From Takakia lepidozioides (lineage: Eukaryota; Plantae; Bryophyta), in assembly GCA_030704615.1 (NCBI GenBank), contig CM060733.1, forward strand, positions 48,112,001 through 48,176,000: DNA of 64,000 bases, given 5' to 3'. A program made the position numbers and the translations under genes. How positions within the stretch are numbered: position 1 is the stretch's first letter; each line of letters starts with the position of its first letter. The notes under the pieces are model-generated. The model searched no databases and was not told where the DNA came from. It saw only the letters and a list, made by a program, of their open reading frames with translations. Below, piece after piece: positions 5,112 through 61,992 of the stretch.

Positions 5112-7306
5112 CATGCAGGCTGATTCAGGAAGACACTGCTTCGGGACAGGGAAGAAGAGAAAGAAAGGCTGTAGAAGCTAGCCCAAGAGGGGCAGACTTA
5201 GCCATAAGCAAAAAGGTAGCGAGAAGCTACATCTAGATAGCGCAAAAAACCAAGAGCCAGCCTAAAAAGCCCAAAGGAGCTTAAGGTACATGTTTCTCGA
5301 GGCCCTGGGATCTATAGTCAGCTGATACTACCATAAGAGAGTTGGGCCCGAGTCTTGTCCGACTTAGAAGACCTTTTATGCCTCCAATTTACCTCCGAGT
5401 CTTCACTAGTACCTACTGGAGATCGCATAGTGCTGAGGGAGCTACCAGCCTTGTGGGAGAGCGTCGCACCAGGTAATTCTGGAATCAGATTCCCTTGTAC
5501 AAAGCCGTCCACCTCTGCCCCATGTTCCATCAAAATCTTCAAGCAATTGGGCTTTTCTCCTGTCGCCGCATCTGCAAAGCCAAGCCTTGCGAGCTTCAGA
5601 CATCAATTCTAAGTGAGACTTACAAAGGATTGTGCGCACACAAACAGGCTTACCAGAGAAAATGACAGCGCATCTGGCTTTCCAAATATTCCACAGGAGG
5701 TGGGCTCTAAGCGTGGCCCACACAGGGCAAGTGGTTCAGATTGAACCATCAGCAGAAAGAGGATTAAAGACAAATCAGAAGCAAGAAATCCTTCCCACAA
5801 GACGTAGAAAGATAAGGCCTTACCCCAAACCTGCCTGGCAACCTAACATTCCACAAAGCAGTGCTCTAAGGTTTCGGAAGCATTAAGATTGCAGATCCTG
5901 CAAGGGGGGGGAGTATCCGGAAGGTGGCTAAGAATAGGTAACACCCGATTGACAAGCTTCCAGAGAAAGCCAGAGATCTTGGCTGCCCTATCTTTGCGCC
6001 AAACATCCTTCCAAATAGGTTTCCACGTGGTGGGGTAGCCAGGCAAATGCAACCATTTTGTAGTCCACTTAGCATCTAGAGAGATGACTGGATTCAGCAA
6101 AGAGTAGCCCATCTTGACAGTGTAAGCAAAAAAAGGAGAGCGGCTATTATCAGCCCAAACCCATTCCCCCGGATCAAATTGCAGTAAGGAGAGGGGAGCT
6201 ATTAAAAACCATAGCAGCCTAGGGTTGGTGTGACCCCCATTGTCAGCAGAAGGGTTCACAACACCTGAAGCCATACAGAAAACACGGATGGCAAAAGGGG
6301 GGGCCTCCAACACACAATCCATTTGCGGGGAATGCAGGAAACCAGATGAGAAAACTTGAAACTTCCAGCCACGCAGGAATCATCCTCTCTTAACAAGGCA
6401 AAAAAGACAAAACGATTACCAGCATCCCCCACCCCCCCCAAGCCAGACAGAGAGAGCACGTCTATTAGCTGGAAAAGATGCAAGGGAGATCCACGAAACA
6501 TGAATGTCGCCAGTAACCACATCTCATCCAGCTCTTAACCTTCTGGTGGAGAGAGCAGCCCCTGCCTCCGTCGGAGGGAGAAGGCCTCCGTCCTCCCAAA
6601 TATGAAGGAAACTGGAAACCCCAGCAGCTTCCCAATGGGCCCATCTGGCCGAGCATGTAATCAACAGCAGTGAGTCTCAGATAGTATTACCAAAAAGAGG
6701 TTGTCTTAAGACCTCCTCCATAGAGGTAGGGGGTCTTTTGGGACAGCTTGGAGCGAATGGTGATCCATGCCCGCCAAATAGAGTTCCACGCTACAGAGCC
6801 GCCGGTGAAAGAATGATTGGAAGAACCACCTTGCACAATCCAACGGAGCGAAGGAGACCAACCTAAGGCGGAAGTAGGGCATGCCTGAAGAAGATGATGC
6901 CTGACAATCAGACTCCACGGGGCCGTAAGATGCTTAAAAACCCTAGGGACCCATTTAGCGAGAAGAGCAGAGATCTGGGATTGAGGGTCAATAATTCCCA
7001 AACCTTCGTTGCCTTTCTTTTGAGTAATCTGTTCCCAACTTACCAGCGCCTTTCTAGACTGATCCGGAGATGAGGCACCCCAAATGAAGTTCCTAACGAG
7101 GGCTTTGATCTTCTTTACTGTGATCGGGCCAGGATGCCAGACAGATGAATTAAACCATCCGGAAGCCAGCAGGACCTGATTGACCACCAAAGCTTTACCC
7201 GCAATAGAGAGAAATAAGGAGCACCAGTATGAAAGCTTCTTTCTAAGATTTTTAACAATCACCTCCGCCCTTTGCTCTTCGCACAACCCATGACCAATAA
7301 GATGGC

Positions 7307-8915
7307 GAGGGAAGCTAGCGTGTGAGCGCGCTCACGCTTAGCGCACTAAGCGTGAGCAGACTTCGTTAAGCGTGAGCAGATCTCTTAAGTGTGAGCAGAT
7401 CTCTTAAGTGTGAGCAGATTTCTTAAGCGTGATCACATAAGGGAAGTGGAGCCTATAGCCGTGGGAAAAGCAGGACCTATTGTCGTGGGGGCGATGTTGA
7501 GTGGAACGGAGGGTAACATACGATGCCTAGGACCTAAGACGTCGAGTTCCATGCATGAAAATTTGAGAGGAATGTGTGGCGAAATTCGTAAGGATTAATG
7601 GCTATGTTGAATGGATGAATGTAGGATGAATGCAGGATGAAAAAAGATAGATGAATGAACCATGGATGACAGCAACACGAGGTTAATTTCGGAGAACTTG
7701 AAATCAACCTTGTGCCAACACGAGGTTGATTTCCGAGTGGACACAGAACGCAAGGTTGATTTGCATCCTACTACTCTTTTTTTTGCGATTTTTTTGCGTT
7801 TATTTTGCATTTTGTTTTGTTTTTTTTTCAACACAAGGTTGATTTGAGAAATGAAAGCATCTTTTTTCCAAATAAAAAATAAAAAATAAAAAATAAAAAA
7901 TCGCAGGATGCAAATCAACTTTGCGTTGACGCAAGGTTGATTTGAGGAATGAAAGCATCCTTTTTCTCAAAAATATAAATAAAAATGAAGTCTCAGGATG
8001 GAAATCAACCTTGCGTTGATGCAACCTTGATTTGAGAAATGAAAGCATCTTTTTTGCATTGTTTTTTGCATTTTGTATTGGCAAATCAACCTTGATTTGA
8101 GAAATGAAAGCATCTTTTTATCCAAAAAAAGTTAAGAGAAAAAAAAAAAATTGAGTCGTAGGATGCAACGTTGACGCAACCTTGATTTGAAAAATGAAAG
8201 ATATTTTTTTCCAAAAAACAAATTGAAGTCGCAGGATGCAAATCAACCTTGCGTTGACGCAACCTTGATTTGAGAAATGAAAACATCTTTTTTGCACTGT
8301 TTTTTGCATTTTGTATGGGACACAATCAAGGTTGCGTTAACACAACCTTGATTATGCTATGGATTTCAATCACCTCTTTCGGGAAATAAATCTTCGTCTT
8401 GCTTAGTATTTCGTGTCTTCTAGTCTTTTGGGAAGTTCAGGGATCAACCTTGCATCAACACGACATTGATTACAAGGGGATTTAATGGGAATTAACAAGC
8501 ATTTGCTGCATCTGTGTTTTCTGAATGTATAGTTCAGGTACATCTACCATATCCTCATTCCGGGGAAGTATCTGAGCGATGACCGTCGATAATACATCTA
8601 GTCTTTAACCATCCACTCATCCATTGTTCATGCATTGCGAAGCGTATGTCTATCCATCAGCCATCTCGCATTCAACCATTCATGAATTATTCATCCATCA
8701 TTCATCCAACATTCATCCAACATTCATCCAGCAGTCATCCAAGTACGCATGATATGTACACTCATTCCCGCGGAAATATGTCTCTGGTGGCTTCCTCATC
8801 CGCGATTGTAGGCCCATGCACCCTATTACGTGAGCATCTTTCCGCTCACAGATTGACATCTTCCCGCTCACGCATCTTTCCGCTCACGGGAGCCGCTCAC
8901 GGACTAGCAATCCCC
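7307..8915. mobile_element. Non-autonomous Mutator-like (MULE) element inserted in the LINE RT
   Basis: 9-bp TSD TAAGATGGC at 7298-7306 and 8916-8924. G-starting imperfect TIRs (GAGGGAAGCTAGCGTGTGAGCG vs GGGGATTGCTAGTCCGTGAGCG on the opposite strand). Subterminal GTGAGC/GCTCAC repeats. No coding capacity. Confidence 0.8.
7680..8360. repeat. Internal tandem repeats of the MULE-like element with a palindromic core
   Basis: Repeated unit ggatgcaaatcaaccttgcgttgacgcaa(cc/gg)ttgatttgagaaatgaaagcatcttttt. The core CAACCTTGCGTTGACGCAAGGTTG is a near-perfect inverted repeat. Confidence 0.8.
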
Positions 8916-9746
8916 TAAGATGGCCAAGAAGGACATGGGATCGACCATCCTGAAGCCAATCAAGGCCTATGTTCTCCCCCCATGGAAGACAATGCGATGC
9001 AGAAACAGGGTCTCTAATCTTGGAGAGAAGCCCCTTGGATTTATTCCAATTAATTCTGAGGCCTGATGCATCACAGAAGGAGGAAATAGCATCTAGTGTA
9101 CGTTGAACGTTGGAGAAGCTGTTGTTGTCAACCAGAAGAGAAGTATCATCCGTATATAAGAAGGATTTAATGTTGTAATCAGATATGCAGGGATGCGGGA
9201 CTCTGAGACCTATGATGTCAGAGTTCTTATTGAGGAGATGGGTAAGACCATCCGCTGCAATTAGAAACAGAAAAGGAGATAGATGACATCCTTGACGAAC
9301 AGAGCGGAAAATTGGAAAAGCACTAGATGATGTGACCATTTACGATGACCTTGTTGGAGGCAGATTGAAGGAGGATCCGAATCCAGCTAAGGAAGTTTCC
9401 ATGAATACCACATTTTTGTATGGCACCCAGAAGATAGTCCCATTCAATGTTGTCGAAAGCTTTCTCGAAGTCAAGCATTAGAAGAGCTAAAGGCTGGTTC
9501 GAAAATGGGCAGTATTAAGGGCCTCACTGGCTAGAAGAATGCTATCGAGAATCATGCGATCTTTCATAAAGCCAGTTTGCTCAGGACTGATCATCTTGCA
9601 TAGCAACGGCTGAAGTCTGGAGGCCAAGGCTTTCACTATAATCTCATAGACAACATTTAGCAAAGTGATTGGCCTATAATTAGCCAAGGAGTCTCTATCC
9701 CCTTTTTTGAAGATCAAAGTGATTATTCCCTGGGATAATTGCGATG

Positions 9747-9935
9747 TGTCGTGCGCATACATATCGCTACACAACTACATCGCTGTCCAAAACCACACAA
9801 CACATGTGCACACCACACACTAGTATACCACTAGTCCACCACTAGTCCAGCCACTAATCCAACCACTAGGCTACAACTAGTCAGTCACTAGGCTGCCACT
9901 ATGCTGCCCACTATGGCAGTCATTAGTCCACACAA
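9747..9935. repeat. Split repeat A, copy 1 (189 bp; element 3' terminus)
   Basis: Near-identical to 10255-10432. It has one extra CCACTAGT-type unit, a 1-bp indel and two substitutions. Confidence 0.95.
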
Positions 9936-10252
9936 TGATAAAGAAGAAGAATACAAGCACGAGCTCACAAATCTGAAGCATAAACTCATGCATATATAAC
10001 CTCATCAGTCAAATACAAGTCAAGCCAAGTGCACCCCACGCCATGGGGAATCCACACTACGGCGCCATAGCTAGGCGCGGTGAGGCTCAACTCGAGAAAG
10101 ATGAGCCTCCCGCGCTTGCCGTGAAGATAACCACTCCAAGGCCTAAATCTGCCTTGACCCCTGGATTGACACTTGGGCCAATCCCAAATGTCAATATGTA
10201 AAAGCTAGCTATTTCCTAGCTAGTTTCACACTAGTGGTAAAATAACTTGACA
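9936..10252. repeat. Split repeat B, copy 1 (317 bp)
   Basis: Matches 20396-20712 with two substitutions seen (catcagtc/catcactc; ccaaggcc/ccagggcc). Confidence 0.95.
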
Positions 10253-10254
10253 GC

Positions 10255-10432
10255 TGTCGTGCGCATACATATCGCTACACAACTACATCGCTGTCCAAAA
10301 CCACACAACACATGTGCACACCACACACTAGTATACCACTAGTCCAGCCACTAGTCCAACCACTAGGCTACAACTAGTCAGTCACTAGGCTGCCACTATG
10401 CTGCCCACTATGGCAGTCACTAGTCCACACAA
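10255..10432. repeat. Split repeat A, copy 2 (178 bp)
   Basis: Direct repeat of 9747-9935, separated from B1 only by GC (10253-10254). Confidence 0.95.
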
Positions 10433-10443
10433 TCGCCCCCCTA
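10433..10443 (-). promoter_or_regulatory. Putative polypurine tract (PPT)
   Basis: Minus strand reads TAGGGGGGCGA immediately before repeat A2, the position expected for plus-strand priming. Confidence 0.6.
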
Positions 10444-10691
10444 GCTGGTGCTTAGGTCCCTCTAAGTCCAGGTAGCCACAAGATGTGATAGTGACCATAG
10501 CCTCACTAAGTCCTCCACCACTATCCCTACTACACTCAAACTCGATAGATCAAGAGGCCGGGTGCAAGAGTTGCCCCATCATTAGTCGCCGTCTTGCAAC
10601 CTGTGAACTTGAGCTTGAGATCTCATGTATTGACTCCTATGAGCTTGGCCTCCCATGTCTTGTTAGCTGCCTCCAGTCATGTCCACTGCCA

Positions 10692-10979
10692 CTATCCCAA
10701 GCAGTGTGGACACAACCAATCTCCGTCAGGAACCTTCTCAAGAGGTGGTGTCAAGCATCCCATATGCCAACCCCTTGAGCATCGATCACACACCAGCATG
10801 GTGGCTGCCCCTTTGGCAGACCCACAGAGCATGCATCTCAAACCTGCAGGTACCACTGCCAAGTTTGGGTCAACTCTGCCATCGACATTGGGAAGGTGAC
10901 ATGGCGCACAATTACGCACATGGTCCTTCCAAGTCATGCCATCCCGACCCTCCAAGATCAGGACCCCTGAGGGCAACAC
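10692..10979 (-). CDS. Integrase C-terminal PHD finger (frameshifted from the integrase ORF)
   Basis: C4HC3 pattern: CMLC...MLVCDRC..GWHMGC LTPPLEKVPDGDWLCPHC. Confidence 0.92.
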   Translation of the reverse strand: MLPSGVLILEGRDGMTWKDHVRNCAPCHLPNVDGRVDPNLAVVPAGLRCMLCGSAKGAATMLVCDRCSRGWHMGCLTPPLEKVPDGDWLCPHCLG

Positions 10980-10990
10980 CTCTCGAACCC

Positions 10991-12358
10991 TCAGAATAAC
11001 ACGCCCTGCAGTAACGTAGGAGCAGTCTGCTGCAAATAAACATAGTCACTAGGGCTAAACCTCCAAACCCCAGGACGATATCCTCCACCACGTATAGTGG
11101 CATACCTCAACGTATCACGGTGTTGTGCAATGGCAAGGTTCTCAAAAGCCATGGGCATGACTTTCTTGAACAACTCTGCACGCTGATCACATGCACGTAC
11201 CCACACGTCCGGGTCGTCAAGGTTAAGGACTTGAGCAGTGTCCCTACGAATGGCTGCAGGCAAATCCGGCTCTCGGCCAAAGAGAAGGAAATATGGTGAG
11301 AAGGAGGCAAGTGATGCTTGTTTGCTGAACCTGTAGCCCATGGCTAACCAAGGAACCTGAAGATCCCAATCTCCTAGGTGTCCCTTCTGCAAGCCATACT
11401 TGCGCAAACCCCTCTTCACCGTCTGAACAACTCTCTCTGCTAAGCCATCGGCCTCAGGATGATCCCGAGAAGTGGTGCGGTGGTCTATCAAGGCTTTATC
11501 ACACAAAGCCTGAAACTCCCCCAAGAACTCTCTCCCTTGGTCTGTGAGTACCTCAGCTGGAGCACCAAATCGGCTAAGCACACGATCCAAGAATGCATAC
11601 GCAGCCCCCTCACTAGCCTTGTCAGGCAACGGAACCAACTCAATCCACTTGGAGAAGTGCTCCACCATCACCAACACATATCTGTGGTGGCGCATAGTCA
11701 GTGGCAACGGTCCTGCGAAGTCAAGACTCCACCTGTAGCCCAATCCCATGATTGGTAAAGGATGCAACTGTGGTGTAGGGGCGTGGAATGAAGCACGCAC
11801 CCTGTCACACACCATGCACCTAGCCACGAACTGTTGCACCTCTGTATGCATACCACGCCACCAATACTGCCCCTGCAGTAAACTGTGAGTGCGTCGCACT
11901 CCAAAATGCCCCAACTCCTCATGGGCATGCCGCACTAACCGTGCACGCTGTGTGGGGTGAGGCACAATCCTCACCCGACCATCCTCCCACACTCGAAGTA
12001 GGTGTATCCCCTCCCACTTGAACCTCTTGGCTCGTTGCAGGATCCGATCCCTCTCCCTGGCAGTCACAATGGCTGCCGTGTCTCCCGTGCGGAGGTAGTC
12101 CAACACAGCCGAATCCTCATGTATATCTCTGGCACCACCTAGCTCATCACTAGCCTCAGGGTCCTCAGACACTCCGTCTACAGTCATCCCTGTTGTAGGT
12201 CCAATTTGACCTCCCGATGCCAAGATACACAAAAATGCAGATGCGTGCCATCCCGGCACCATCTCCTCGTCCGTCTCACCATGCCACCGAGCTCCAGTGT
12301 CATCCTGCTGGCTCATGCATGGATTGCGACTCAATCCATCCGCATCCCGATTGACCAA
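10991..12358 (-). CDS. Gypsy-type DDE integrase (pol segment)
   Basis: HHCC zinc domain (HEELGHFG...CMVC) and catalytic D,D35E (WSLDFAGP, LTDQGREF, LAERVVQTVK). Confidence 0.95.
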   Translation of the reverse strand: MVNRDADGLSRNPCMSQQDDTGARWHGETDEEMVPGWHASAFLCILASGGQIGPTTGMTVDGVSEDPEASDELGGARDIHEDSAVLDYLRTGDTAAIVTARERDRILQRAKRFKWEGIHLLRVWEDGRVRIVPHPTQRARLVRHAHEELGHFGVRRTHSLLQGQYWWRGMHTEVQQFVARCMVCDRVRASFHAPTPQLHPLPIMGLGYRWSLDFAGPLPLTMRHHRYVLVMVEHFSKWIELVPLPDKASEGAAYAFLDRVLSRFGAPAEVLTDQGREFLGEFQALCDKALIDHRTTSRDHPEADGLAERVVQTVKRGLRKYGLQKGHLGDWDLQVPWLAMGYRFSKQASLASFSPYFLLFGREPDLPAAIRRDTAQVLNLDDPDVWVRACDQRAELFKKVMPMAFENLAIAQHRDTLRYATIRGGGYRPGVWRFSPSDYVYLQQTAPTLLQGVLF

Positions 12359-13700
12359 ACCGGTCGATGCACAACCTGAAAGTCATACTCCTGGAGTATA
12401 AGTGCCCACCGTGCAAGCTTCCCCGTAAGCTTGTCTGACTCCATCAACCACTTGAGTGGCTGGTGATCCGTGACAAGGGTGAAAAGATTGCCGTATAGAT
12501 AGCACCTGAAGTGTGCCACGGCCCACACTGCAGCTAAGCACTCTCCCTCATATGAGCTGTACTTAGCCTCTGCAGCGTTGTTCGAGCGGCTAGCGTAAGC
12601 CACTACGAACTCTCTTCCCTCATCATCCACCTGTGTGAGCACCGCTCCAAGCCCCAGCATGCTCCAATCCGTATGCAGCTGAAAGGGACGCCCCCTGATA
12701 GGTCGTCTCAAGATAGGCGCCGAGGTCAACCTCGCCTTGAGCTCTTGAAAAGCTCGTTCCTGCTCATCTTCCCACTGCCACTCCTGGTCCACCTTGGTCA
12801 GCTTGGTTAGAGCCTTTGCAATGGTACTAAATCCCTTGACAAACCGTCTATAATAGTTTGCCAACCCCATGAAAGCTCGAACTCGGCTCACATCCGTGGG
12901 GCGTGGAATTTGTGCAATGGCCTCTACCTTAGTCTGCTGTACCCCAATCCTCCAGGATATATCATGTGACCCAGATACTCAATCTGGTTGTGGAAAAACT
13001 TGCACTTCCCCGGATGCAACTTCAATCCGTGCGCTCTCAAGCGCTCCAATACCACCTGAAGGTGTCTCTCATGCTCCTCCATCGTAACACTAAAGATGAT
13101 GATGTCATCTATGTAGCACCGAGCAAAGTCCACCCCTGCTAGAATCCTATCCATGACTCTCTGAAACTCTGCAGGAGCATTCTTAAGCCCAAATGGTAAG
13201 AACCGCCACTGATATAGGCAATCCTTGCCGTGCTCATTGATCCCCCAGAATGCCGTCTTTGCTTGTCCGCCTCCTTGATTGGCAACTGGTGATATCCGGA
13301 TCGTAAATCCAAAGTGCTAAAGGCCTTAGCATGCCCGATGGCATCAAAGATCTCCTCTGGTGTTGGCATGGCATACTTATCGGACTTGGTCTGACGATTT
13401 ACAGGCCGGTAATCACCGCACATACGTCTCTCCGTCCAATTGCCATAGACATCCTTCTTGGCTGGCATCACTGTGGCTGAAGCATACTCTCCACCAGAGA
13501 GCTCCACCAAACCTGCCTCCCAGAGATCTTGAGTCCTCATCTGAATCAAAGACCTCTCCATGTCACTGTATCTATAGGGTCTCCGAAAGATTGGCGTGTC
13601 AGTGGCCAACTCAATACGGATCTCTTGACCCTTCAGTGCTCCCAAGTCCTTCAAACTGAAGGCAAAGCAATTCCTGTAAGCCCTCAGGAACCGCCGTATA
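12331..13700 (-). CDS. Reverse transcriptase and RNase H (pol segments, several frameshifts)
   Basis: RT: RMCGDYRPVN, STLDLRSGYHQL, MPF-type FLPFGLKNAP, CYIDDIII, KCKFF..YLGH. RNase H: LHTDWSMLGLGAVL, YSSYEGECLA, TDHQPL. Confidence 0.95.
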
Positions 13701-14109
13701 CGTCGTCTCTCTCCTCCGGTGACAATGGGTCCAATGTCAGGCTCCCAATTGTCCTCCGTAACTGCAACCTTAAGTCCAGTGGGCTTAGAGGTAGAGGACG
13801 CGTCCAGTGGTTGCTATGTTGCAACCTCTTGAGCAGTACTCCCTGCCTGCTCAGTCAATGACAAGGCCTCATCCTGCCCCATCATCTCATCCTTGAGGAC
13901 CTCCTCAACCCGAGAAGAATCCCCAACCTCATCCATCACACCGCCTTGGCTGCCAACTCCCTCTGAACCTCGAGCACCTCCCACGTGTGCCATGGATGCA
14001 TGCACCCCGTGGTCCTCACATGCTCGCCCCCACTCACTGCCTGTACCGTCTCGGTAGGCAGAGAGACCATTGAGGGAAGTGTACTCCGCACTCTGCGTTG
14101 CTCAGCCAG

Positions 14110-15060
14110 AGCCAAGCTGATAATCCAGGTCAAGCAATTGAGATCCATTGCTTGCCCCAACACTTGACGACGTGATGCCTCAGAAAGAGACGACACCGCC
14201 GTGGTACCAGTGGTAAAACCCATTGCCCGCTCACGCTCGTCAGCATTAGGCTCCACTAACTGCTGCAACTGAGCATCCCACAGGAGGCCAGGTCCACTAT
14301 CCCGGAAAGCATGCGATCCTGGGAAGCTGAGCAGTGTAGGTAATGCTGCTCGTGGTTGACCCACCTTGTTGACCACTGCCAAAGGCAAACGGTCATCGTG
14401 TCTCACACGCTGAGACTGCCTCCCTGTGTCCAGAATGCTATCCACTGTGAGATGTGCTGGCCGCTGCACCCCATCAAATGCACGCTTGAGCAGTGCGGGT
14501 GGCATCAAGTTAGTCCACCATAGCCGTGGACGATGAGCCCGTGACCCCACTGTAGCTGCATCTAGCAACACTGCTGACCCAAGCCACGACCGGACTTGAT
14601 GCACACTGGCCATCACCCTGGCCCGAGAATCGCCCATCAGTGGCACATTCTCCAAGATGTATGCTGGAGATACAGCTTGATGAAGCTGCAAGTGGCGCAA
14701 AACCCGCACCATCTCCCAAAACAGACCCGACCTCGAGTCTCGCAATCCATTGCCATGCCCGGCTGATGAATGCCCTTGGCAGGGCCAACCTGCCACTACC
14801 AGATCAATGGAGCCAACCCGCTCCAAATCCTGCGCCCCCAGCAACGAAATGTCTGCTGGCAAGGCCTGCTGATATCCACGAATTGCAGACACCGACAACA
14901 ACTCAGGGTACCGCTGCACCAACTGAGCAACATGGCGAAGTGAAACGCGTCGTGCAGTCTCATCCCTCTCCACATACAGGTAACGCCGAACTCGTACACC
15001 TGCCTGTAACACAGCAGCCAATCCGGTGCTGATCCCGCCAAACAAGTCCAGAAGACAAAT
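14110..15060 (-). CDS. DNMT3-like C5 cytosine DNA methyltransferase domain inside the pol polyprotein (within ORF 13936-15231)
   Basis: Canonical motifs in order, uninterrupted: I LDLFGGISTG; II YVERD; III DI; IV DLVVAGWPCQ (catalytic PC); GLRDSRSGLFWE; VI YILENV; VIII DAATVGSRAHRPRLWWTNL; IX ERERAMGF; X RRQVLGQAM. These parallel DNMT3A motifs LSLFDGIATG, GGSPCN, LFENV, AAHRARYFWGNL, EMERVFGF and RQRLLGRSW. Confidence 0.95.
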
Positions 15061-15199
15061 GCCTTCATCCGGATACTGCCACACAATAGGTGTGGTGTCC
15101 AATGGAGACAACTGAGGTGGTCCTGGTGCAATCCCCGCACTCTCCTCCTCTCCTGACGGTACAAAAGCCTCCACCCAGGCTTGTTGCACCCGTCGATCA

Positions 15200-17982
15200 G
15201 CATCCGCTGCAAATCCTTGCTCGTGCCCCACAATGGAGTCTGAGCAACCATGGTAGGCAACTCCGCCATACCATACATGTCATCCTGCTCTCCCGGAGGT
15301 GGTACATCCTCTGAATGAGCATTGCCCTCAAGCAACTCTCTAGGCCAACTCACTGCCGCTGTGAATGCTGCTAGTGTCGGCATCTTGCCTCGCTGGGCAA
15401 CCGCAACTCCTCCTATGAACGTCACAGGGAGCTGCACACGCCGGCCCTCCCCTGACTGCCATGCAGGCCTATAGGAAGCTGACTCCTCCCAAAAATCCAG
15501 GGTGAAGCCCATGGGGTACAACACTGCCCCACCAACCAGGACATCGTATGAGACTGCGTCTGTCACAATGGCCTTGGCTCGCATCACTGAGCCATCTGTA
15601 GGGTGATCCGGCCGTAGTCTGATAGCCAACTCACGCCGTGTCATGCCCCGAGCCTGCTCCGATCCTCCCAGAGACGTCTGTATCTGGAAAGGACAAGGCT
15701 CCATATCCGCCTCCGTGAGGCCCAAGCCTGCAATAGCAGCTCTGCCCAGCATCAGTGGCTGAGCTCCCGAGTCCAACAAGACCCGCAGTGGCCGGTACCT
15801 CTTGCCTGCCGGTCCACTCAAACAGAAAATGCCATCCTGGTTGTCTAACATGACAACTCCAGGTGTCACCATGGCGCGCTCAATGGCTGGCCTAGCTGGC
15901 AGCTCCATCAACCTGGCAGCTGCAGCTTGCCATGGCGCCGCCGTGGCAGTCTTGACCCTCAAATCCGAGGATCCCTCCGGCACTACACCTCCCACTATCT
16001 CCGCAGAAGATGAAGTAACCTCCCCACTCTCACAGAGTGTAGCTGCCAGCCTGAACACCTCAGCTGGTCTTACCCCCGGCGTCGCAATCATGGTAGCCGA
16101 GAACAATGGAGCCTGGCACACAGATGTGGCCGCTCCTAGCAGCACACTAGCTGCCGTAGCCTTGGCAACACTAGGTAGTGGTGCTACCCGTGTAGCTCTC
16201 CCCAATGGCATAGTAACCTCCGCCTCGGTAACAGTCGAGCGAGAACTAGGTGCCATGGATGGCGTCGACACTGTCTCCGCCAATGTGAATGACTGAGGAA
16301 GCCTAGCCTGACGGCTTGCCTCCCCACGCTGTGGATCCAACTCCACCTCTGCACCTCGTGGCTCAGGAACTCGTGCTGCTCCTCGAGTCACGGCTGCAGC
16401 AGACTCCACCTGCACTAGTGGTAGTGCTGCTCCACACATGAATCCCATGCCTCCCATATCTCCTCCCTCAGGAGCAGGAGGTGGACCATCCGGCCTTAGA
16501 GCCGGTACCACCTGAGCTGTAGCCATGGCAGCGAGCCTCTGCTCTAGCTGCTGAAGCCGGTTGGCCATGCCTTGGTCAACACCCTGACCTCCGCGTCCTT
16601 GGCCACGTTGAGCTTGCCCTTGGCCTCGTGGCTGGCCACCTCGTCCTCTCTGGGCTGCTCCACCTCGCCCCCGGCCACCATTGTTCCCTTGGAACTGGCC
16701 TGGGCGCAACTCAGGATGCAAACCATAACAGGCCTCTTCATGCCCGTGCTTGCCACAATGCCCACACTGCAACTGTGCAGGCTGTGCATGTGCCGACCCT
16801 TTGCCTCCCTCTGGGCAATCCTTCTTGACATGGGGTCCTCCACATGTCCAGCACACACCACATCCGCCCGTTGTTGGCCAGCAAATGAAGGGAGAGACCC
16901 CTGCATCTGAGGTCCTCTCTGCCCTTCCCTGAGCTTCACCTGAGCCCCCTTGTTGCCTTGAGCACGTTGAGGTAGTGGTTGGCTAGGATCACCACTACCC
17001 CGTGGTGTCTCCTTAGCAAATCCACCATGACCACTCGTTCCTCCACCATGTTGAGCTCTATCCGCTCTGCCAGCAAAAACACATTTGCTAAGGTGGGTTG
17101 GGCCGCTTGTAGAGAGTTGCATCCCGCACCCTTCTCCTCAGCTCCTTGTCCAATATCCCATACCAGAATTGGACTGCCTGAGCTTCCGTAACCCCTTGGG
17201 TTACATTTATCAGCGCCTCATGCGAGTGAAAGCCTCCCTCCAAGCTCTCGGTCGGCTTCCGTTGGAACTCTTGCAAGCTCCGCAACTTCTCTGTCCTCAC
17301 CCCCTTGGTAGTTCCCTCTCAACTCTTCGAAGAACTCCACAAACAGGGTTGAAGGCAGGCACGGTGCTAGTGTTGGTGCGGTAGTGGCTTGGGTGGACTT
17401 CGTAGCTACTGTACCACCAGTCCCACTAGTCCCCTGCTACTTGCTGAAGCTGCCGGTGCAGCGGCAGGTGCAGCCACTGCCCTCGTGGCTCTAGTGCCCC
17501 TAGTGATGGAGACATAGTCGGGTGACCAGTACATCCTCCACTCCTCGATCTCAACCTCATGCCCCCGCCTGAACTCATGGTAATCATCCATAGGCGGCCC
17601 CTCAAGGTGCTGAAACAGCCCCTTCCATGCCATGAAAGGTGTAAATAGTTGTGGATTGCGCATTTGCTGCAAATCACACCAACTATCAACTCTTGGATAA
17701 AATCATCCAACTCGATGGTGCCCACCGCCCAGAGTACCTTCGTGGCCTTTTGGTAGCTCCATACATCTCCTCCATTGTGTCCCACAACAATGGCAAAGAA
17801 ACAACTTGCACTGCCGGTATGAGTCCTCCTGATTCACAATCCGAATCAGAACCTTCCGTGGAAGACACAGGAGGTGAAGGTGGCCTAAACCGCACACCTC
17901 GTCTCGTGTACCCACTAGTATCGCTAGTGCTCGAACCGGCACTGTCCCCAGCAACTAGTGGCACCTCCGTGTTGACACTCAA
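15200..17982 (-). CDS. Gag with two zinc knuckles and aspartic protease (frameshifted)
   Basis: CWTCGGPHVKKDC and CGHCGKHGH knuckles, RGG-rich linker, protease VLLDSGAQ...DVLVG. Upstream gag-like pieces (LQEFQRKPTES..., QAVQFWYGILD). Confidence 0.85.
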
Positions 17983-18699
17983 CCGGTCATGAACATGTCC
18001 CTAACCCCTCTCCACAAGGTAACCGGGTAGAGAACCTGTTACGGTTTATGGTTTGGAATACTAAGTTCCTAACATAGCCTACATCTGTACCTGCATCCAC
18101 CGCAAGCACTCCTATGGTTGGCTGGTCATCACCTCCAACCTCACCACAGGAGAAACAATGATGGTCTGGCTGGTCATCACCCCAGCCTCACCATCGACAG
18201 CATGCTCTAGGACTGGCCGGTGATCAAATCCGGACCAATCACCTATAAAAACAAGCGCCCACACAAAACTAGCATGGCGCAAAGTCAAGCATGCAGGTAT
18301 GGAGGGGATCCAAACACAAGAAATCAGAACGATAACTCCCCCACACCAAAAACAACTCCACGGTGTTGCTCCTGCAAGGACACCCCAGCCCAAACCCGGA
18401 CTGACTCTTGCCTCCACCTACGGAAAGGTCTTGGCCTAATGAGAGGGTGGAAACTACGAGGAAGAGAAGCTAAAGCAATGCCTAACCCCAGCATGCCCTC
18501 ATCCCAACACTCTTCCTCTCCTCTCTTCCCTCACTTGCATGACCATGGGAATATCATGAAGATACTCCTCAAACCGCCCTCTACGAGCTTCAAAATTCGG
18601 CCTTCCAGACCACATGCCAGTCCTTAGGCAGTCCACCAGTGCCTCCACGAGTCAGCACAGGCCGTCCACAGGTCAACACGGGCCACCACAGACCAACAC

Positions 18700-18965
18700 A
18701 GGCCCACACAGCTCACTGGTCACAGCCATCACAGTCCCACAGGCCATCAGGCACAACCCGTCACAGCCCCAAAGGCCATAGGCACAACCTGTCACAGCCC
18801 CGCACAGCCCGTCACATCCCCAAAGGCCACGGCACAGCTTGTCACAGCCCGTCACAGCCCAAAGGCCACGGGCACGGCCTGTCACAGCCCCTCACAGCCC
18901 GTCATAGCCCCACAGGCCTCAGGCACGGCCTGTCACAGCCCCTCACAGCCCATCACAGCCCCATC
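18700..18965. repeat. CACAGCCC-based tandem repeat in the retroelement 5' leader
   Basis: Many copies of (gt)cacagccc interspersed with aaaggccac.gcac. Confidence 0.85.
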
Positions 18966-20379
18966 CATGGCCGCTCTGGCAGTTTAGCCATTTCTCCAAG
19001 GGGTTTAGCCACGCCAAGCTAGGGTTTGTGTCTCTTGGACTCTAGGCTTCTTTCCACTGAGCTATGGCGGTTGTGAGGAAATCAGCAAGGTATTCTTGCT
19101 CTTTCGGCTCCCACACACCACCATAGTAGCCCTAAGCCATGAGGTGGTTGCCACAAACCAACCCTTCTTTCTCACTTAGCCTCCCCAAACACGCCACTAA
19201 ACTCAATGGCAAACAACCAAGCCCTGCTGGTTCCCAGCCCTTGTGAGCACTCATTCAAGCCCTCTCCTTGGCCATAACATCTGTCTTAGAGCCTATTCCA
19301 GCCCCCTACACCTGCTGCTTCAAGAGTTGCGCTCCCTTCAAGCTTGAAGTTGAAACCCCAACTCACATAGGCCCTACAAGTGCTTTTCTTTCACTCCAAG
19401 TGGAAACCAGCCCTAGACCTTCCATTCTAGCTCTCTAAAGCTTGAAAACAATAGCCTCAATGGGCTGAAGGCATGCTCCACACATGCCCCACTCTCACCA
19501 TAAGAGAATCAGCTCCTTTGCTTCATTTCTTGCACCCACAAACCTGAAAATACAAGCTTCAGCAGGCTGAAAGCATGCTCCACATGCCCTACAGGGAAAC
19601 CAGCCCCTTCCTTCCTTTCTTGCACTCCCACACCTGAAAGTGCAAGCCTTCACCAGGCTGATAGCATGCTCCACACATGCAACCTCTTCACACAAGAGAT
19701 ATCGGCCCCCTATCTTGGCTCCTTGGTTCCTTGATGCTCTCTAAGACAAGACTAAGCACTCCACAGCCTTTGCCAAGCTCCTGAAACCCTAAGGCTTACA
19801 TTTCCAGCCACAAGACACTTCTCTTGTGGTGCAAGAACTCTTCTTCCAAGCTCTGAAACCCTAGGTGCACATTCCATGGCCTTGCCGCACCTCTTAGCTC
19901 ATGTTCCAGCCCTGCTCTCGCCATGACAAGAGCCCTCTCAATGCTGAAGCTCGAGATTGAAACCCAATCTCACCATACTCCACAAAGTGCACTGATTTGC
20001 CCCAAGCCAAATCAGCCCTTTCGCTTGGTCTTGCAATCCTTCACACAATGAAAGCTCGCATTCCCAAGTCCAGTTCTCAGCTTTGCCACCAAAGCCACTA
20101 TAACCTGCTCTTGACTGGTCCTCTTCCCAATCGTGCTTGCTCATGCATGTACACAATCTGAAACCATCAAGGTGCTCTGGAATTACCTGCAGTATGGTGC
20201 TTTCATCTCTGAAGCTGAAGATCGAACGCCAAGGTTTACCACCTCGTAACCCACATCGCCTCCGCTTCTAACAACCAAGAGCTCCATGGTGCTCCTTGCA
20301 TAACAACTTGGTTTCCCTCATTCTCAAGCAAAAACTACAAGTGCTACAACTAACTCGTATCTAGCACTCATAGATACGA

Positions 20380-20395
20380 GCTGATCTTTCTCGAG
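20380..20395 (-). promoter_or_regulatory. Candidate self-priming primer-binding site
   Basis: Directly downstream of repeat B on the element strand. CTCGAGAAAGATCAGC is 15/16 complementary to 20551-20566 inside B. No TGG-starting tRNA PBS is present. Confidence 0.55.
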
Positions 20396-20712
20396 TGATA
20401 AAGAAGAAGAATACAAGCACGAGCTCACAAATCTGAAGCATAAACTCATGCATATATAACCTCATCACTCAAATACAAGTCAAGCCAAGTGCACCCCACG
20501 CCATGGGGAATCCACACTACGGCGCCATAGCTAGGCGCGGTGAGGCTCAACTCGAGAAAGATGAGCCTCCCGCGCTTGCCGTGAAGATAACCACTCCAGG
20601 GCCTAAATCTGCCTTGACCCCTGGATTGACACTTGGGCCAATCCCAAATGTCAATATGTAAAAGCTAGCTATTTCCTAGCTAGTTTCACACTAGTGGTAA
20701 AATAACTTGACA
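20396..20712. repeat. Split repeat B, copy 2 (317 bp; element 5' terminus)
   Basis: Direct repeat of 9936-10252, followed by TSD GATG. Confidence 0.95.
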
Positions 20713-21430
20713 GATGGCATAATGCCCTTGATGAGGATGTCGTTAGTTAAGTTAACAAAATCCTCACCACAAACAGGCCAAATTGCTTTGAAAAGCTCAA
20801 CAGGCAGCCCATCTAAACCAGGGGACTTTAAAAAAGCAAGAGATGAGAGAGCTTCCCCAAGCTCTATTTCATAAAATGGGGCAGAGAGCTTTTCCAGTCA
20901 GCAGGCAGAATGACTGAGGGGAAAACAGACAGTCCACTTCCTATCTGGATAAGATCATATCCTCAGAGGAGGTTCTCCTGTTGAACAAAGATGAGAAGTG
21001 GGAAGCAGCTAAGGAAGACAACTTCTTAGGACGAGAAATATGAAGAACTGACTCATTCTTCAGAGAGACAATAGTGGTTGCTGCCTGACGTTGCCTAGCC
21101 TTAAGGAAGAAATATGTAGACATTTTTTCTCCCTTAAGAGAGCAGCTGATACCCGCTTTACATCTCAAATTATCATCTTTTATCTTGAGCAGCTCAGCTA
21201 AGTTTCTTTTGGCCAAGAAATAAGAATCCCAAGTAGCAGGGGAGGCCCAATCCTTCTCAATGACTTGCTGACAGTGAGACAAACACTTAAAGAAATCTAT
21301 GAAGCTCTTTTACATCCGCAGTATGTACTGCTCGGCTGTAATGATGGTTCCCACGCCAGACCCATTGAGCTCATTCCCTGCACAAATGCATTGTAAGTTC
21401 ATCGACACACTACCTCCATGTGTTTTTACA

Positions 21431-21670
21431 GGGATCTCCATAATAATGAGCTGGAAGGACCATTTCCAGCCTTCAATAAAAGCGAGAACCTCCTCCCTTC
21501 GTCCAATGCTTTCCACCAAGGTCCATACATAGGGCCTGCATGTTTAGTGCCTCCCTGGCCTGGGTACCGTGTAGGGCCTCCCTGGCCTGGTTACAGTCAG
21601 AGTCCATACCCCTCTACCTCCTACCCTACTCCTTATTTGAATGGTGCACCAGCACAGGCTCCGGCCCAAC
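21431..21670 (+). pseudogene. LRR plus Pro-rich gene fragment
   Basis: After a ttttacag acceptor: DLHNNELEGPFP (plant LRR consensus), then a Pro/Tyr-rich stretch. Confidence 0.35.
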
Positions 21671-21671
21671 C

Positions 21672-21885
21672 CTCTCCACTGCTCTTCAATGTTTTCATTA
21701 ATGAGCTCTTTGGAGATGTGGAAAGCGAGGGATTTCGGTTTAAGATGGGTGACAGCTCTTATGTTTGTGAATGACTTTGTGGGACTAGGGGATACCCCCA
21801 TCCAATCTTCAGGAGTTGATTGAGTGTTCAAAGAGGTACTTTGACTTGTGGAGGCTAGAAGCCAATGTCAGTAAATGTGCAGTGG
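21672..21885 (+). mobile_element. Short LINE RT relic
   Basis: SPLLFNVFINEL, LMFVNDFVGL (LLFADD-like) and WRLEANVSKCAVV across frameshifts. Confidence 0.6.
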
Positions 21886-22234
21886 TGGCTGAGCCTAAAG
21901 CCCTGGCCTGTTTGGGTCTAATCGCTGGGCATCAATGTGAAGGGCTTTCTAGAGGAAATCTGGAAAACCTAAACCAATTGTTTATACCAAGTATGGGAGT
22001 GAGCCCCTCACAAAGGTAGTGTCTGTTCCCTCTTGTTCCGCCCAAACTGGGCACAAAGTCTATGCACTAGGCTACAACAAACAATGTCTCATGAGTACCT
22101 TCTATCACAATCTTATTAGGATTTGGTATGGCAGGAGAAGCACAAGCCCAGAAAAATCTTTTGAATGACACAGACCAACACACGAAGGGATTCTACATCA
22201 ACTTTCAGACATGGGAAGTGCAAACACGCACCAC

Positions 22235-22385
22235 CGTGCTACATCAAAATGAGGTTGCATGTCCGACCATGAGCCCCAGTCATCACTTGTGACACTGTGC
22301 ATGTGGGCAAAATTTCCCACCTTCATAGCCATAGCTGGTGTGGCTCGTATTCCAGGGGAGAGAGAATACACAATGAGCCTTCCTG
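22235..22385 (-). pseudogene. Isolated exon of a GH27 (alpha-galactosidase/melibiase family) gene
   Basis: GRLIVYSLSPGIRATPAMAMKVGNFAHMHSVTSDDWGSWSDMQPHFDVAR resembles the plant GH27 segment RPIVYSLSPG...YRITGDDWDTW..HFD. It ends at a GT donor. Confidence 0.55.
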
Positions 22386-22529: not shown

Positions 22530-23055
22530 CAACACCTCGGACACAGTAGAGGGGTCTGACTTTTGGGCTGCTCAGACACAGCAGATTGAGAGATTGCCGG
22601 CGAGGATACTGCAGTTATAACGTTGCAATCCTTAGTCAATTTCTTGACCTCTTTCACTGGGAATAGGGTACAGCCAAGCATACAGAGCGTGTACTCCTTC
22701 TCTGTTTCTGTAGAGACGCCCACCAATTCGATGCTCATTTGCGAGAAACCAGGGGTCATCTCAAAGCGGGGGTGAATTCCCCCTCCATAGAAGATGCTGC
22801 TCTGGGATGTAATTGCCAGCTGAAGTACACCCGAGACGTTAAAAATGTTCTTCGAACCTCCTGCATTCTTATTCAACTGCACATCTGTAAGCGAGACTGT
22901 TGCCAGCTGCACCGGTGTCGTTGCATCCGATTCATTCAAAAAGTGGGTATATGGGGAATTGAATCTCTCCTTGACGAATTTGCTTCTGGGAGTGGATTGC
23001 ATAGCATAATGGGCTTGGAATCCTTAGACTACAGCCAATTCCCATTTTGAAATGA
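22530..23055 (-). pseudogene. Fragment of a DUF2921-type plant protein gene
   Basis: SFQNGNW..., FNVSGVLQLAIT, RFEMTPGFSQMSIELVGVSTE...LCMLGC resemble the N-terminal part of DUF2921 proteins. Contains a stop/frameshift. Confidence 0.45.
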
Positions 23056-25190: not shown

Positions 25191-28100
25191 TTAAGTTAAG
25201 CGAGCAACCCACCATTCTGAGGGTGCTGGGCACAGCGGCTCCAAGGAGTCAAAGACATCAGCAGCAAAACCTGTGATCACACTGTCAGGGCTACAGGAAT
25301 CCGTGTCCTTGCTGGTGCACTCATGTATGCCAGAATCCTCAGAATACAGCATAGGTAGCTTCTCCCATTGATGACTATTGGTCAGAAAGGTGGGGAGCTC
25401 AGGGCTAAATACCTGGCTACTTTGCATACCCGATCCCTCCGAGTGCAGCAGAAAATCCAAGTAGTTGTTACTCGGCTGTGCCTCCGTGAGCGGCACTCCA
25501 AACGCATCGCCCCCTCGCCCCCCGCCGTTCTGCATCAGCGCCACCCCCAACTCCGCCGGGCCGCTCTCCCCGCCCTCGCTGCCCCCCTGCTCAAAACACG
25601 CCCGCCCGTCGCGCCGTGACCGCGGTCGCCGCTTCACCGACCGCGACGTCCGCGGCGTGACCGTCATGCAGGGCGCCCCCTGCGGGTACCCGCCCCGCCC
25701 GTCGTCCAGCATCCCCCTCCCCGCCCCTCCGAACTCTCCCTCCCCGTAGTGTGCCTCTCCTGCCACCCCGCATTTTGCACTCTCTTACACAAGTTCCACT
25801 CTTTCTCTCTCCATCTCTCAGACATTCCATCGACTTCGCAGGAGACAAAGCTTTGCCTATCTAGAAAGCAGGTGGATTCATTCTCGACCAGGCCAAACTT
25901 CCATGCAGGACCTACACATTTAGTTGGAAGACCGTTTCGTTTCCCTGGAGCATGTTGAAGACGTGTATGAAACTGTAGATTGGGCAAATAGCAAGGTGGG
26001 AGACATAAGAGAAGGAGGATTAGTATGTCCAGGAAGCCATTCTGCTTGGCTTGAGTTGGAATTAGTGAATTAGACTAGACTGATCACATAAATGGCACAT
26101 GCACTGAAAGTTCTGTGGAAATATTAGGATCTTATGGGCTTGGGTCAAGCTCCTTGTGAACTACCAGACATCAAAGTAGCTGAAATGATCAATAGAAGAT
26201 TGGAGGAAACTACACAAGCATCTCACAAAGTTTTTGGGGTTATGGGAGGTGTAGAATCGCTTGTGACTAGCAAGGTGCTACAGCTGATGCATGACCTTGA
26301 ACAGAACACTAGTGTGAGTGAAAGATACAGGAAAACAAACCCACTAAGACTAAATAAATTTTCTTCCACGGTGGGTTTACCTCTAGCTTGTGTCTATGGG
26401 AAGGTGAAGGAGGTAGCTTCGTCCCTTTCTGTGGAGATAAGAATTTCCACATGCATGGGCGATTTTGCTATAGAGGGTACTGAAGTATTTGCGCTCTTGC
26501 AATTTGGGGGTTCAACAGACGTAGACTCGACATCCGAGTACGAATGGGGGATACAAGTTGAGGGCAAGACTAAGTTAGTCTGTATGATGCGTGGCCCATG
26601 GCATTTGCCTTGGGCTTGGGGTTGTGATGAGAGTTATGTTGAAGGGGCAGCTCGCCCACGGTTATCTATGTATAATGCACCAGGTGGGCATTGCAACGCC
26701 TAGAACAGGGAGAAAAAATTACAAAGATGAGGATAGTACCTAAACGCTGTGGTGAAGAGTAGTGAGGCAAAGCTTGCACTGTTGCCAAGGCCGAGTTTGG
26801 GATATGAATTAGGCTTGGAAGCGTTGCCAAGGCCTAGGTACTTTACCTTGAGAGTGGGGTGCCTTGAGTGGGGATGTGCGACACTTGGTATCAGAGCTTA
26901 TAGTGAGCGGTCAGCGTGATTTCCCCTGCATGCGAATGCACGGATGGAACCGTCAAAGGTGATCCAAACTTGCAAGGCTGTGAACAGATAGCTTGGTCCT
27001 AGTAATGACCAACTAGACAGCGCGCACGGGGATGTCATGGCAAATACAACCAGGAAGCACTTGAATTCCAGGATCTGAACCGGACCTGTTCAACCACCAG
27101 TAGGGGTCTTACCAGGAGTGGCCATTCTCTAGGAGCCTCTCTCTCTTAAAAAAACTGTGATGTGAGAAGATGGCAGAAGAGGTGTCCCTCCAGGGGAGAG
27201 AGAGGGGGGGGGGGGGGAGGGGAAATGGAGGACTTCCAAAAGTTCCTTTGTGAACGAACTCGGCCCTTTTTTTCACTTCTATTGACTTTAGCAGTGTGGC
27301 ACAAAGCTACTTCGTGTACAAGTACAAGCGTAGAAAGAGAAGAAGAACGTGCCTGCCACCATATGCTCAAGCTTGATGCTCAAAACATCGTCGACGTCCA
27401 TGGAGTTGAAAGTCTGGACGTTGTGTCGCAGTCGACGGATGTCGCTGGCGTCCCTGAAGGCGCTTTCTTCCTCCGCAAAGATGAATGGGGGCACAAAACC
27501 CCCTCCTACGAGCGATGCCGCCCCCGTTGGACTGTGCACCTGTTCCAAAGTTCCCGCCCACCACCATCTTTTGCCCCGTTATCGAGCGCGCAAATTTGTG
27601 CATGAGGAAGGTTGAGATCACTTGAACGGTCCGTGTTCTCTCTCTCTCTCTCTCCCACCTTCAAACGATGTCTTATGAGTACATTCTCTCTATATAGTAC
27701 ACTCTACCTCCTACATTAGTTGATGCTCATGCAGATTATGAATCTATCTGTAAGCCGTGTGCCTTACTTACTTCATTGGACCATAAGTCGCAAACTAATT
27801 CCTCCCTGTGCAGTAACTGATACTGGCAATGGAGTTGGCTTCTCACCGCCTCACACGAGCATGGTTATTTTCTGAGTATATACTATGACTACTTACATTG
27901 GTGCCCGAAAAGTTGAACCTCGTGCATCTAAGCCGGTGTACCCTGCTGTACACCTAGACCATAACTTGCCAACTAGTCAGTTCATGTGCAGCAACTGATA
28001 CAGGCAAACGGTGGAGTTGTAACCACAGACAGAGACAGACAGAGACAGGCGAAACAGACTACATTCCTTTAGGTAATAGACAATAAGGAGCAGGTATCCC

Positions 28101-35285: not shown

Positions 35286-35369
35286 AGGGTCCTATTGTCG
35301 TGGAAGCAGTTATAGCGCTTAAAAAAAGAGGTATAGAAAGAATGGAATGGTCAATGTGAAACTTACTGA

Positions 35370-36720: not shown

Positions 36721-36949
36721 CTGTAGAGGCCGTGAAAAAATAAAATGAGCTTTCATACTGACACTTGTCCATGTTTGGCAGGCCCTCGAACAAAAAATAA
36801 ATTTATTTTTATTTTTATTTTTTATTTTATTTTGGGCCCGAAGCAATATTGGGGGTGGGGGCAGAAGTGGTGTGCGTTGACGCACTCAATTTTAAAGGCT
36901 CGTTAACCAAACCCGATGAAAAAATAAACTACCTTTCATGACGAGACAT

Positions 36950-61375: not shown

Positions 61376-61992
61376 TCTGCCATCCCCTTCCCAACACTGG
61401 GCTGCTTGCTCTGCACTGCCCTACTTACATACCACAAAATGCACTGTACCACCACCAAAACATGCAGCAAATATTGCACCAAGGCTGTGAATAACAGGAC
61501 CCACTTAAACATTTTGACGTAGTCTTTTTTTAAATGTTATAAAGAAGGATCGAAGAAGGAAGAAGGATGGAGGGTCTCCTGTTCTATAAATCAGGGGTGT
61601 GATGCAGGGAGTCCTGGGGTCATCTTGTGTGTCCAACTGTGAGCACCCTGTGAGGGCAGGCCGCGGGAATATCTGTGCTTGAGACAAACTTTCGCAATTG
61701 GGTTGCTGGCAAGCTGGTTTGGATTGGAGGGACCGTGAGCGTTCTTGGAGGGCTAAATGGGCAACGGCGCTTGTTTAGAGTCAGTCAGCGAGCTCTTACA
61801 CAATATAGTAGCAGATCAATAGGTTTAAAGTTTAAACTCCACGATGAGAGGGCTGTCCATCTCGTCGCCAATACGAACTGGCCCACTCCAATCCTTCCCG
61901 AGGGAATCAGAAGCTGGAAGTTCTTATGTTCTTGCATGTCTTGCAAATATTTGGGTTCGTCTGGATAGTTTGTAACGGAGAGTCTTTAAGTC

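Follow-up and report, generated by a model that had tools for sequence, protein, structure and literature searches.

A PHD finger at the integrase C-terminus of a Gypsy-DNMT3-type retrotransposon with split terminal repeats in Takakia lepidozioides

Introduction

The closest described relatives of the element reported here are the KnitGypsy-Dnmt3 or Gypsy-DNMT3 elements of streptophytes (the second name is used in preprint 10.64898/2026.05.21.726589), which share with it a Gypsy pol combined with a DNMT3-type domain, DIRS-like repeats in the order A-coding-B-A-B, and a green-plant host (PMC5890265). KnitGypsy-Dnmt3 is described there from Klebsormidium only, with the DNMT said to lie in the ORF of the RT, whereas a conserved stop intervenes in the clade of the present element; a search of that paper's text and of three supplement files, figures aside, gave 0 occurrences of the term PHD, and no mechanism for the repeats was found in its text (PMC5890265). 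KnitGypsy-Dnmt3 gave no methylation in yeast, a result that the authors call inconclusive, and methylation of cDNA has been suggested for the DNMTs of DIRS elements (PMC5890265).

PHD fingers have been reported in Gypsy and other elements (PMC9940879; PMC8557442; PMC6673714; preprint 10.1101/2021.11.30.470311), and Supplementary Table 6 of the last of these may list an INT-PHD DNMT3 fusion. REM1 of Chlamydomonas is a PHD-bearing Gypsy (as cited in PMC9940879), and Chlamydomonas Gypsy-7a_cRei, which is similar to the present element in its PHD within a Gypsy polyprotein and in a proposed insertion bias, inserts between genes 2.6 times above chance; its legend places the PHD before INT and mentions no DNMT, whereas the PHD follows INT here (PMC9940879). 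Chromoviruses (Tcn1, Tf1-Sushi) likewise have a histone-reader-type integrase tail and self-priming, with a leaky stop in Tj1, but they carry a chromodomain and ordinary full LTRs and have no DNMT (PMC6317226; PMC4600332). EpiLTRs also unite a reader and a DNMT in one LTR element, but with a chromodomain, DAM and a DNMT4-related enzyme, and they are stated to be distinct from Gypsy-DNMT3 (preprint 10.64898/2026.05.21.726589). Literature covered mostly as titles and abstracts yielded no land-plant clade of INT-PHD DNMT3 elements and no account of its stop, priming or circle join.

Architecture and state of the element

The stretch of DNA analysed (the window, 64,000 bp of contig CM060733.1) contains a minus-strand element of 10,966 bp (9747-20712) that begins with TG, ends with CA and is flanked by a 4-bp target duplication; it encodes, in this order, Gag, protease, C5 methylase, RT, RNase H, integrase and PHD finger. 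The Gag-PR-RT-RH-INT order, DDE integrase, TG/CA termini, 4-bp duplication and polypurine tract (PPT) identify it as Ty3/Gypsy; its long frames gave no tyrosine recombinase match, and the rve integrase present is not of the DIRS/Ngaro type. The coding features are as follows.

15804-18000, minus: Gag region, upstream part broken, 5' limit approximate (relatives match zf-CCHC)
15402-15803, minus: aspartic protease (relatives match PF13650/PF13975)
14095-15069, minus: DNMT3-like C5 cytosine methyltransferase, open frame, catalytic Cys motif present (Pfam, PDB matches)
13808-13816, minus: amber stop conserved in the family (13814-13816) with a CAR-YYA hexamer after it, predicted to be leaky (relatives, published consensus)
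12927-13813, minus: reverse transcriptase, split over two frames (Pfam)
12334-12978, minus: RT thumb/connection and RNase H (Pfam)
10994-12382, minus: integrase frame, with H2C2 zinc domain (about 11792-11956) and rve core (about 11456-11737) (Pfam)
10836-11015, minus: distal part of the integrase C-terminal beta domain, and linker (beta strands in the model of relative P0001)
10701-10835, minus: PHD finger (C4HC3), final pol domain (translation, Pfam, PDB matches, selection)

The methylase has DNMT3A as its best PDB match (E 9e-12), ahead of DRM2 and HhaI, and Gag includes two zinc-knuckle-like Cys/His clusters near 16740-16850. Short tandem repeats occupy 18737-18963, within a leader of roughly 2.3 kb between the primer site and Gag. 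The window copy is broken: the integrase core frame stops at 10991-10993, with a frame break near 11015, and the C-terminal beta domain and linker share the frame of the PHD, so that core and C-terminal domain plus PHD lie in different frames and this copy makes no integrase-PHD fusion. Further pol breaks lie near 12360, 12940, 13260 and 13940. Sequencing-run contigs with the same DNA differ from the window at several pol breaks and cover the element far deeper than its flanks (a depth that is not a copy number), from which it follows that the host genome carries the family in highly repeated form and that the breaks are not common to all copies. No RNA run was among the listed sequencing runs that contain this DNA. 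CpG depletion showed no difference between the element (0.53), the window (0.47) and a PPR gene (0.49).

Insertion site and surrounding sequence

The element interrupts a LINE, with the following features at its borders.

5846-9746, minus: 3' part of the host LINE (RT, zf-RVT), decayed (Pfam, frames)
9743-9746: left copy of the target-site duplication (repeat comparison)
20713-20716: right copy of the target-site duplication (repeat comparison)
20713-22300, minus: decayed 5' part of the host LINE, reaching as far as the RT N-terminus; outer limit approximate (frames)

The RT frame of the LINE runs to 20713 and resumes at 9746, and many stops and frame changes occur elsewhere in it, in agreement with the preliminary description, which had placed the insertion in a dead LINE. 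A single LINE insertion cannot show target preference. Pfam domains of transposable elements were found in 2/22 near flanks (1.5 kb) versus 1/15 control stretches 6 kb off, in an insensitive test based on hand-picked ends (four of them approximate) and AT-rich short-read contigs of relatives. The NCGN target preference of Phygy in REXdb (definition from PMC6317226) was matched by 0/6 duplications.

Several other sequences were observed in and around the host LINE. Non-coding repeats with imperfect inverted units at 7700-8470, inside the LINE, are probably a second, small insertion, and a dispersed repeat (1873-2300, 21887-22107 and 27662-27691, 72-88% alike) has one copy in the 5' part of the LINE. 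Elsewhere, two intronless PPR genes of the RNA-editing class lie at 54127-56673 (minus strand, with E, E+ and DYW) and 61990-64000 (plus strand, cut by the window end after E+); they are 84% alike, inverted, and flank a mitochondrial carrier frame (60431-61372). An AT-rich tandem array with a period of about 60/119 bp and copies 70-80% alike fills 35300-36780, and the stretches 22532-23023, 28072-28491, 48169-48762 and 50581-52060 contain a fragment of DUF2921, a Myb domain, another zf-RVT piece of LINE origin, and gag/integrase fragments of the Copia type.

Identity and fold of the PHD finger

Minus-strand translation of 10692-10850 gives a complete C4HC3 finger, with Cys1 to Cys7 encoded at 10835-10701 and the stop codon (10692-10694) two residues beyond the finger. 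The preliminary description had read a full PHD finger downstream of the integrase with the sequence Gly-Trp-His, and had named a PF00628 search as a check. That search gave E 1.1e-11 and 45 bits against a cut-off of 24, covering positions 1-47 of the 47-position profile; the rve core precedes the finger, and Trp stands immediately before the His with Gly before it, all as first read. The cage Trp of H3K4me3 readers of the ING/BPTF type is thus absent, Gly occupying its position two residues before the His. The best single-domain PDB sequence matches are PHD1 of KDM5B and KDM5A, PHF12, ATXR5, DPF2/3, BHC80, CHD4, WSTF, BAZ2A/B and UHRF1. The proposed likeness to KDM5-PHD1, BAZ and UHRF1 fingers holds for the nearest PDB sequences and for membership of the class without the cage Trp, but not for the second Asp of the UHRF1/BAZ type, which is missing.

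A fold model was made for P0001, a 91%-identical relative with an intact integrase tail. The finger was modelled with pLDDT 82-90 and superposes on the fingers of ATXR5, BAZ2A, DPF2/3 and BHC80 at 0.6-1.7 A over 47-53 columns, so the modelled structure indicates a PHD fold. Matches of the whole model to PHF1 and UHRF1 were set aside (rmsd 13-19 A), since the finger alone superposes. The first reading of a true PHD finger without the cage Trp at the C-terminal end of the integrase is supported.

Residues relevant to histone binding

The finger pattern was found in 49 proteins, 33 of which end at most 25 residues past the finger (close clade) and 16 of which have long tails (distant relatives); in addition, 37 of 80 loci gave an indel-free finger and were used for residue counts and pN/pS. 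With the window set against these 37 loci, median pN was 0.23 versus a median pS of 0.64, and the finger is maintained under purifying selection. Gly two residues before the His is found in 32/33 close proteins and 37/37 loci. Reading of K4me3 requires the cage Trp (PMC3214078), and by its sequence the finger is not a K4me3 reader.

In BHC80 and AIRE, acids ahead of the first Cys hold unmodified K4, whereas UHRF1 has no such acid at K4 and uses two Asp for R2, K4me3 costing it just 3-fold; binding is gone when the first Asp is lost and 9-fold weaker when the second is lost (PMC3214078). Fingers of the UHRF1 and DPF3 type have been named the PHD-nW-DD subtype (PMC10570056). In the present family, the first Asp, after Cys3, is retained in 31/33 close proteins, 15/16 distant proteins and 33/37 loci, and conservation extends to the Pro/Trp loop and to the Met-Leu strand that precedes Cys3. 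The second Asp of nW-DD, after Cys4, occurs in 0/33 close proteins and 0/37 loci, and 26/33 close proteins have an Arg two residues after Cys4. An acid two to four residues before Cys1 is absent in the window copy and found in 4/33 close proteins and 11/37 loci; among the distant long-tailed proteins 12/16 have an acid before Cys1. The median net charge of the finger is +2 in the close clade versus -4 in the distant relatives. The finger is thus like other no-Trp PHDs (UHRF1, BAZ2A/B, KDM5 PHD1, DPF3, ATXR5, BHC80 and AIRE) in fold, spacing, absence of the cage Trp and presence of the Asp after Cys3, and unlike them in being neutral to basic and in lacking both the second Asp and the acid before Cys1.

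Since the acid before Cys1 and the second Asp are both missing, the strict reading of H3K4me0 that had been proposed for the finger is unsupported. The most economical reading of the residues is a weak grip on A1 and R2 of H3 with loose discrimination at K4, while the neutral-to-basic charge in the close clade argues toward weak or no H3 binding. A finger of this kind in land plants might no longer read histones at all, and instead bind nucleic acid or a host protein, or aid integrase assembly on the internal attachment site described below. The joint loss of the acid before Cys1 and the second Asp, the Arg after Cys4 and the net positive charge would fit such a change of function, and PHD fingers have been reported to bind non-histone proteins and DNA (PMC10570056); the retained Asp after Cys3, Met-Leu strand and Pro/Trp loop, and a modelled fold like that of H3-bound fingers, speak against it, and we regard it as unlikely. 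The explanation to which we would give about an even chance is that the finger is the C-terminal integrase PHD of a broken plant element of the Gypsy-DNMT3 type and, in active copies, likely anchors the integration complex at the N-terminus of H3 while discriminating loosely at K4, the methylase likely acting apart.

Stop codon and position of the methyltransferase

Gag-PR-DNMT proteins of the close clade end about 60-180 residues past the DNMT and RT-RH-INT-PHD proteins start just before the RT, and in the DNA of relatives the DNMT and RT frames are continuous save for one stop; the DNMT-RT frame is uninterrupted in more distant relatives, unlike in the close clade. A stop survey of 30 anchored sequences, one of which ran off its contig (n=29), found the first in-frame stop upstream of the RT to be followed by CAR-YY in 17/29 copies (TAG in 14 of these), with another, nearer stop in 12/29 and an open frame in 0/29. 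The full CAR-YYA is present in the window, L036, L037 and L075. Two open-framed relatives have exactly one TAG at the DNMT/RT junction, in frame and followed by 1,047 codons; in L037, this single TAG divides frames of 1,369 and 1,047 codons, and the next 71 codons are without Met. The readthrough signal of TMV consists of UAG and CAR-YYA (PMC2754532), and the gag stop of Tj1 is leaky (PMC4600332). The stop between Gag-PR-DNMT and RT-RH-INT-PHD is predicted to be leaky as well. Copies of the Sphagnum-type subfamily carry CAR-YYC as the hexamer and have an ATG two codons further along, which makes reinitiation possible there; this and the nearer stops in 12/29 copies count against a leaky stop. 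An ATG that overlaps the end of the DNMT was considered as the start of RT-RH-INT-PHD and rejected, as relatives have DNMT and RT in frame with one stop.

DNMT was found in 21/23 loci spanning its slot. A FastTree phylogeny of 152 RT-RH segments aligning over at least 340 residues (midpoint root, no named references) contains a 75-member clade with support 0.99, in which any PHD comes after INT. The DNMT lies before the RT in 8 members and between RH and INT, together with a PHD, in 39 (a count of tree labels), and in P0181 and P0228 the family HMM detected no DNMT despite 825 and 1,197 residues before the RT. The PHD stays on INT while the DNMT moves or is missing, and it therefore belongs to the integrase.

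These arrangements bear on the proposal of the preliminary description that the element recreates ADD-DNMT3 logic within one polyprotein, a strict H3K4me0 reader steering it to K4-unmethylated chromatin and being coupled to its own DNMT. ADD acts on DNMT3 by direct allosteric contact with the catalytic domain. In the close clade, the conserved stop and some 1,050 RT-RH-INT residues lie between writer and reader, the PHD tracks the integrase and persists where DNMT is undetectable, the acid before Cys1 is lacking in the window copy and in 29/33 close proteins, and the flank counts given above do not favour such steering. The absence of the cage Trp, the closest solved fingers being readers of unmodified H3, the frequent presence of DNMT across its slot, the insertion into a decayed LINE, and the distant clade, where the DNMT directly precedes INT-PHD and the fingers are acidic and mostly have the acid before Cys1, are points on its side. 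An ADD-DNMT3 coupling here is unlikely from this arrangement, and the proposal as a whole seems to us improbable; coupling is possible in the 39 distant relatives in which DNMT adjoins INT-PHD in one frame. For the close clade we keep to an integrase tether separate from the methylase.

The same description had the PHD replacing a chromodomain. No chromodomain was detected in the 37 relatives scanned, all hand-chosen (0/11 at E 0.01 and 0/26 at E 1e-5), and a replacement is unsupported; that the finger occupies the place of a chromodomain is a fair description. Named relatives include Marchantia polymorpha, Calypogeia fissa and Sphagnum and, more distantly, Closterium; no match named Klebsormidium was among the relatives found by homology search, and the viral contigs searched contained no relative. 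Together with the intronless PPR genes of the DYW kind in the window, these relatives suggest a host among the non-seed land plants. Further variation was observed among the wider set of proteins. DNMTs of the distant clade (P0105-P0112 and others) often have Glu in place of the Pro that precedes the catalytic Cys, and 47/100 DNMT domains are without the Pro-Cys pair, most of them retaining the Cys. P0053 and other long-tailed relatives have 120-490 residues past the PHD that gave no Pfam match and by eye form a beta-rich module, the tail of P0053 presumably resembling an amino-methyltransferase motif. PHD precedes INT in P0234, P0248 and P0261, outside the 75-member clade, and P0234 joins Dam, RT, RH, PHD and INT.

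Split repeats, priming and the A-B join

The ends of the element are built from two kinds of repeat, A and B, as listed below.

20396-20712, minus: 5' repeat A1, 317 bp, starts with TG (repeat comparison)
20550-20562, minus: predicted self-primer segment in A1
20384-20396, minus: primer-binding site, 13-nt perfect complement of 20550-20562 within A1, predicted self-priming
10434-10442, minus: polypurine tract immediately before B1
10255-10433, minus: repeat B1, 179 bp
10249-10258: internal 10-bp palindrome formed by the B end, a 2-nt spacer and the A start, with integrase-type termini head to head
9936-10252, minus: repeat A2, 2 substitutions relative to A1
9747-9935, minus: terminal repeat B2, with CA as its end; differs from B1 by 2 substitutions and an 11-bp indel

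The layout A-internal-B-A-B occurs in the window, L013 and L030, each with its own 4-bp duplication, and a B..B pair after the PHD was found in 23/59 sequences with 950 bases there (the window included, some sharing a site). The functional LTR is B-A, between the PPT and the primer site, and has the integrase-type ends inside it; the element is not bounded by a pair of full LTRs, its ends falling within the B-A unit.

No tRNA genes were found in the window, and the primer site is predicted to pair with A itself. L013 has a 17-nt self-complement with other letters at the same position, and 0/2,000 random internal 36-mers exceeded a 10-nt complement. The pattern is that of self-priming in Tf1/Tj1 and Tcn1 (PMC4600332; PMC6317226). 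Counting against it, seven further 5' ends reach only 9-13 Watson-Crick pairs, at the same position in five, and in L030 and L031 the best partner of the primer site lies elsewhere in A. Immediately after the primer site, a 10-bp perfect inverted repeat with a 7-nt loop (20354-20380, seen by eye) may join the priming fold.

The primer site and the PPT together predict the ends of the linear cDNA, and the A2|B2 join corresponds to these predicted ends fused (the A end and the PPT-adjacent B start). It is free of indels in 11/11 cases, with single substitutions in five, and holds in two subfamilies with different letters; the ends share one base. Integration may thus proceed from an end-joined two-LTR circle that is cut at the palindrome in the 5' LTR. 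A freely cut two-LTR circle should also give the mirror form A-B-A-internal-B, and the finding of this form in 0/8 distinct 5' ends counts against the circle. A short form, A-internal-B, was found in a survey of 17 hand-picked short 3' ends, and three such copies have 4-bp duplications, matching in the first two and with one mismatch in the third.

L010:59-6641, short A-internal-B copy
L031:1969-10608, short A-internal-B copy
L023:7631-10608, short A-internal-B copy

The short form fits a one-LTR circle or a double cut, and also B-B recombination or assembly collapse. The layout could also arise with no circle: reverse transcriptase might switch templates while copying a longer RNA, a route proposed for DIRS-like elements with split repeats, or the inserted copy might later be rearranged. 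The missing mirror form would suit this origin, as would the short copies in so far as recombination or collapse can produce them, and a published relative has been called DIRS-like in its repeats (PMC5890265); set against this, the join falls exactly at the predicted cDNA ends in two subfamilies, and a later rearrangement would neither recur in every case nor leave TG/CA ends and 4-bp duplications. We consider an origin of this kind rather doubtful, and retain the two-LTR circle as the working explanation.

Proposed life cycle and implications

In the proposed cycle, most ribosomes would stop after Gag-PR-DNMT, placing DNMT at the level of Gag and probably packing it in the particle, where it would methylate new cDNA. 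Readthrough by a minority would give RT-RH-INT-PHD, from which the protease would free INT-PHD. Self-primed reverse transcription would produce B-A-internal-B-A, the two cDNA ends would be joined, and integrase would open the circle at the palindrome in the 5' LTR to give A-internal-B-A-B. The PHD would grip A1 and R2 of H3 through its one conserved Asp and, having no cage Trp, would not be attracted by promoters that carry H3K4me3. Taken together, a large and old green-plant Ty3/Gypsy clade would integrate as two-LTR circles by a DDE cut at an LTR palindrome, prime itself without tRNA, make a DNMT3-type enzyme at Gag level by a leaky stop and methylate its own cDNA, and aim its integrase by a PHD; we propose this combination tentatively, at somewhat less than an even chance.

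Taken alone, the finger varies a theme already known, and it is the end structure and the expression signals that stand out. Beyond retroviruses too, integration is generally taken to start from linear cDNA, with LTR circles as by-products. In retroviruses this is the described state of affairs (PMC3148978). The sequence of the present element leads to the prediction, exact to the nucleotide, that its DDE integrase starts from a circle. Finders that demand two full LTRs would miss or mis-cut such elements. The pairing of PHD and DNMT carries a known element type into land plants and offers a tractable integrase tether other than the chromodomain. A DNMT made at Gag level would be in a position to mark cDNA and not the site of insertion, and its production at the level of the capsid suggests a possible role for retrotransposon DNMTs, a question left open by de Mendoza (2018).
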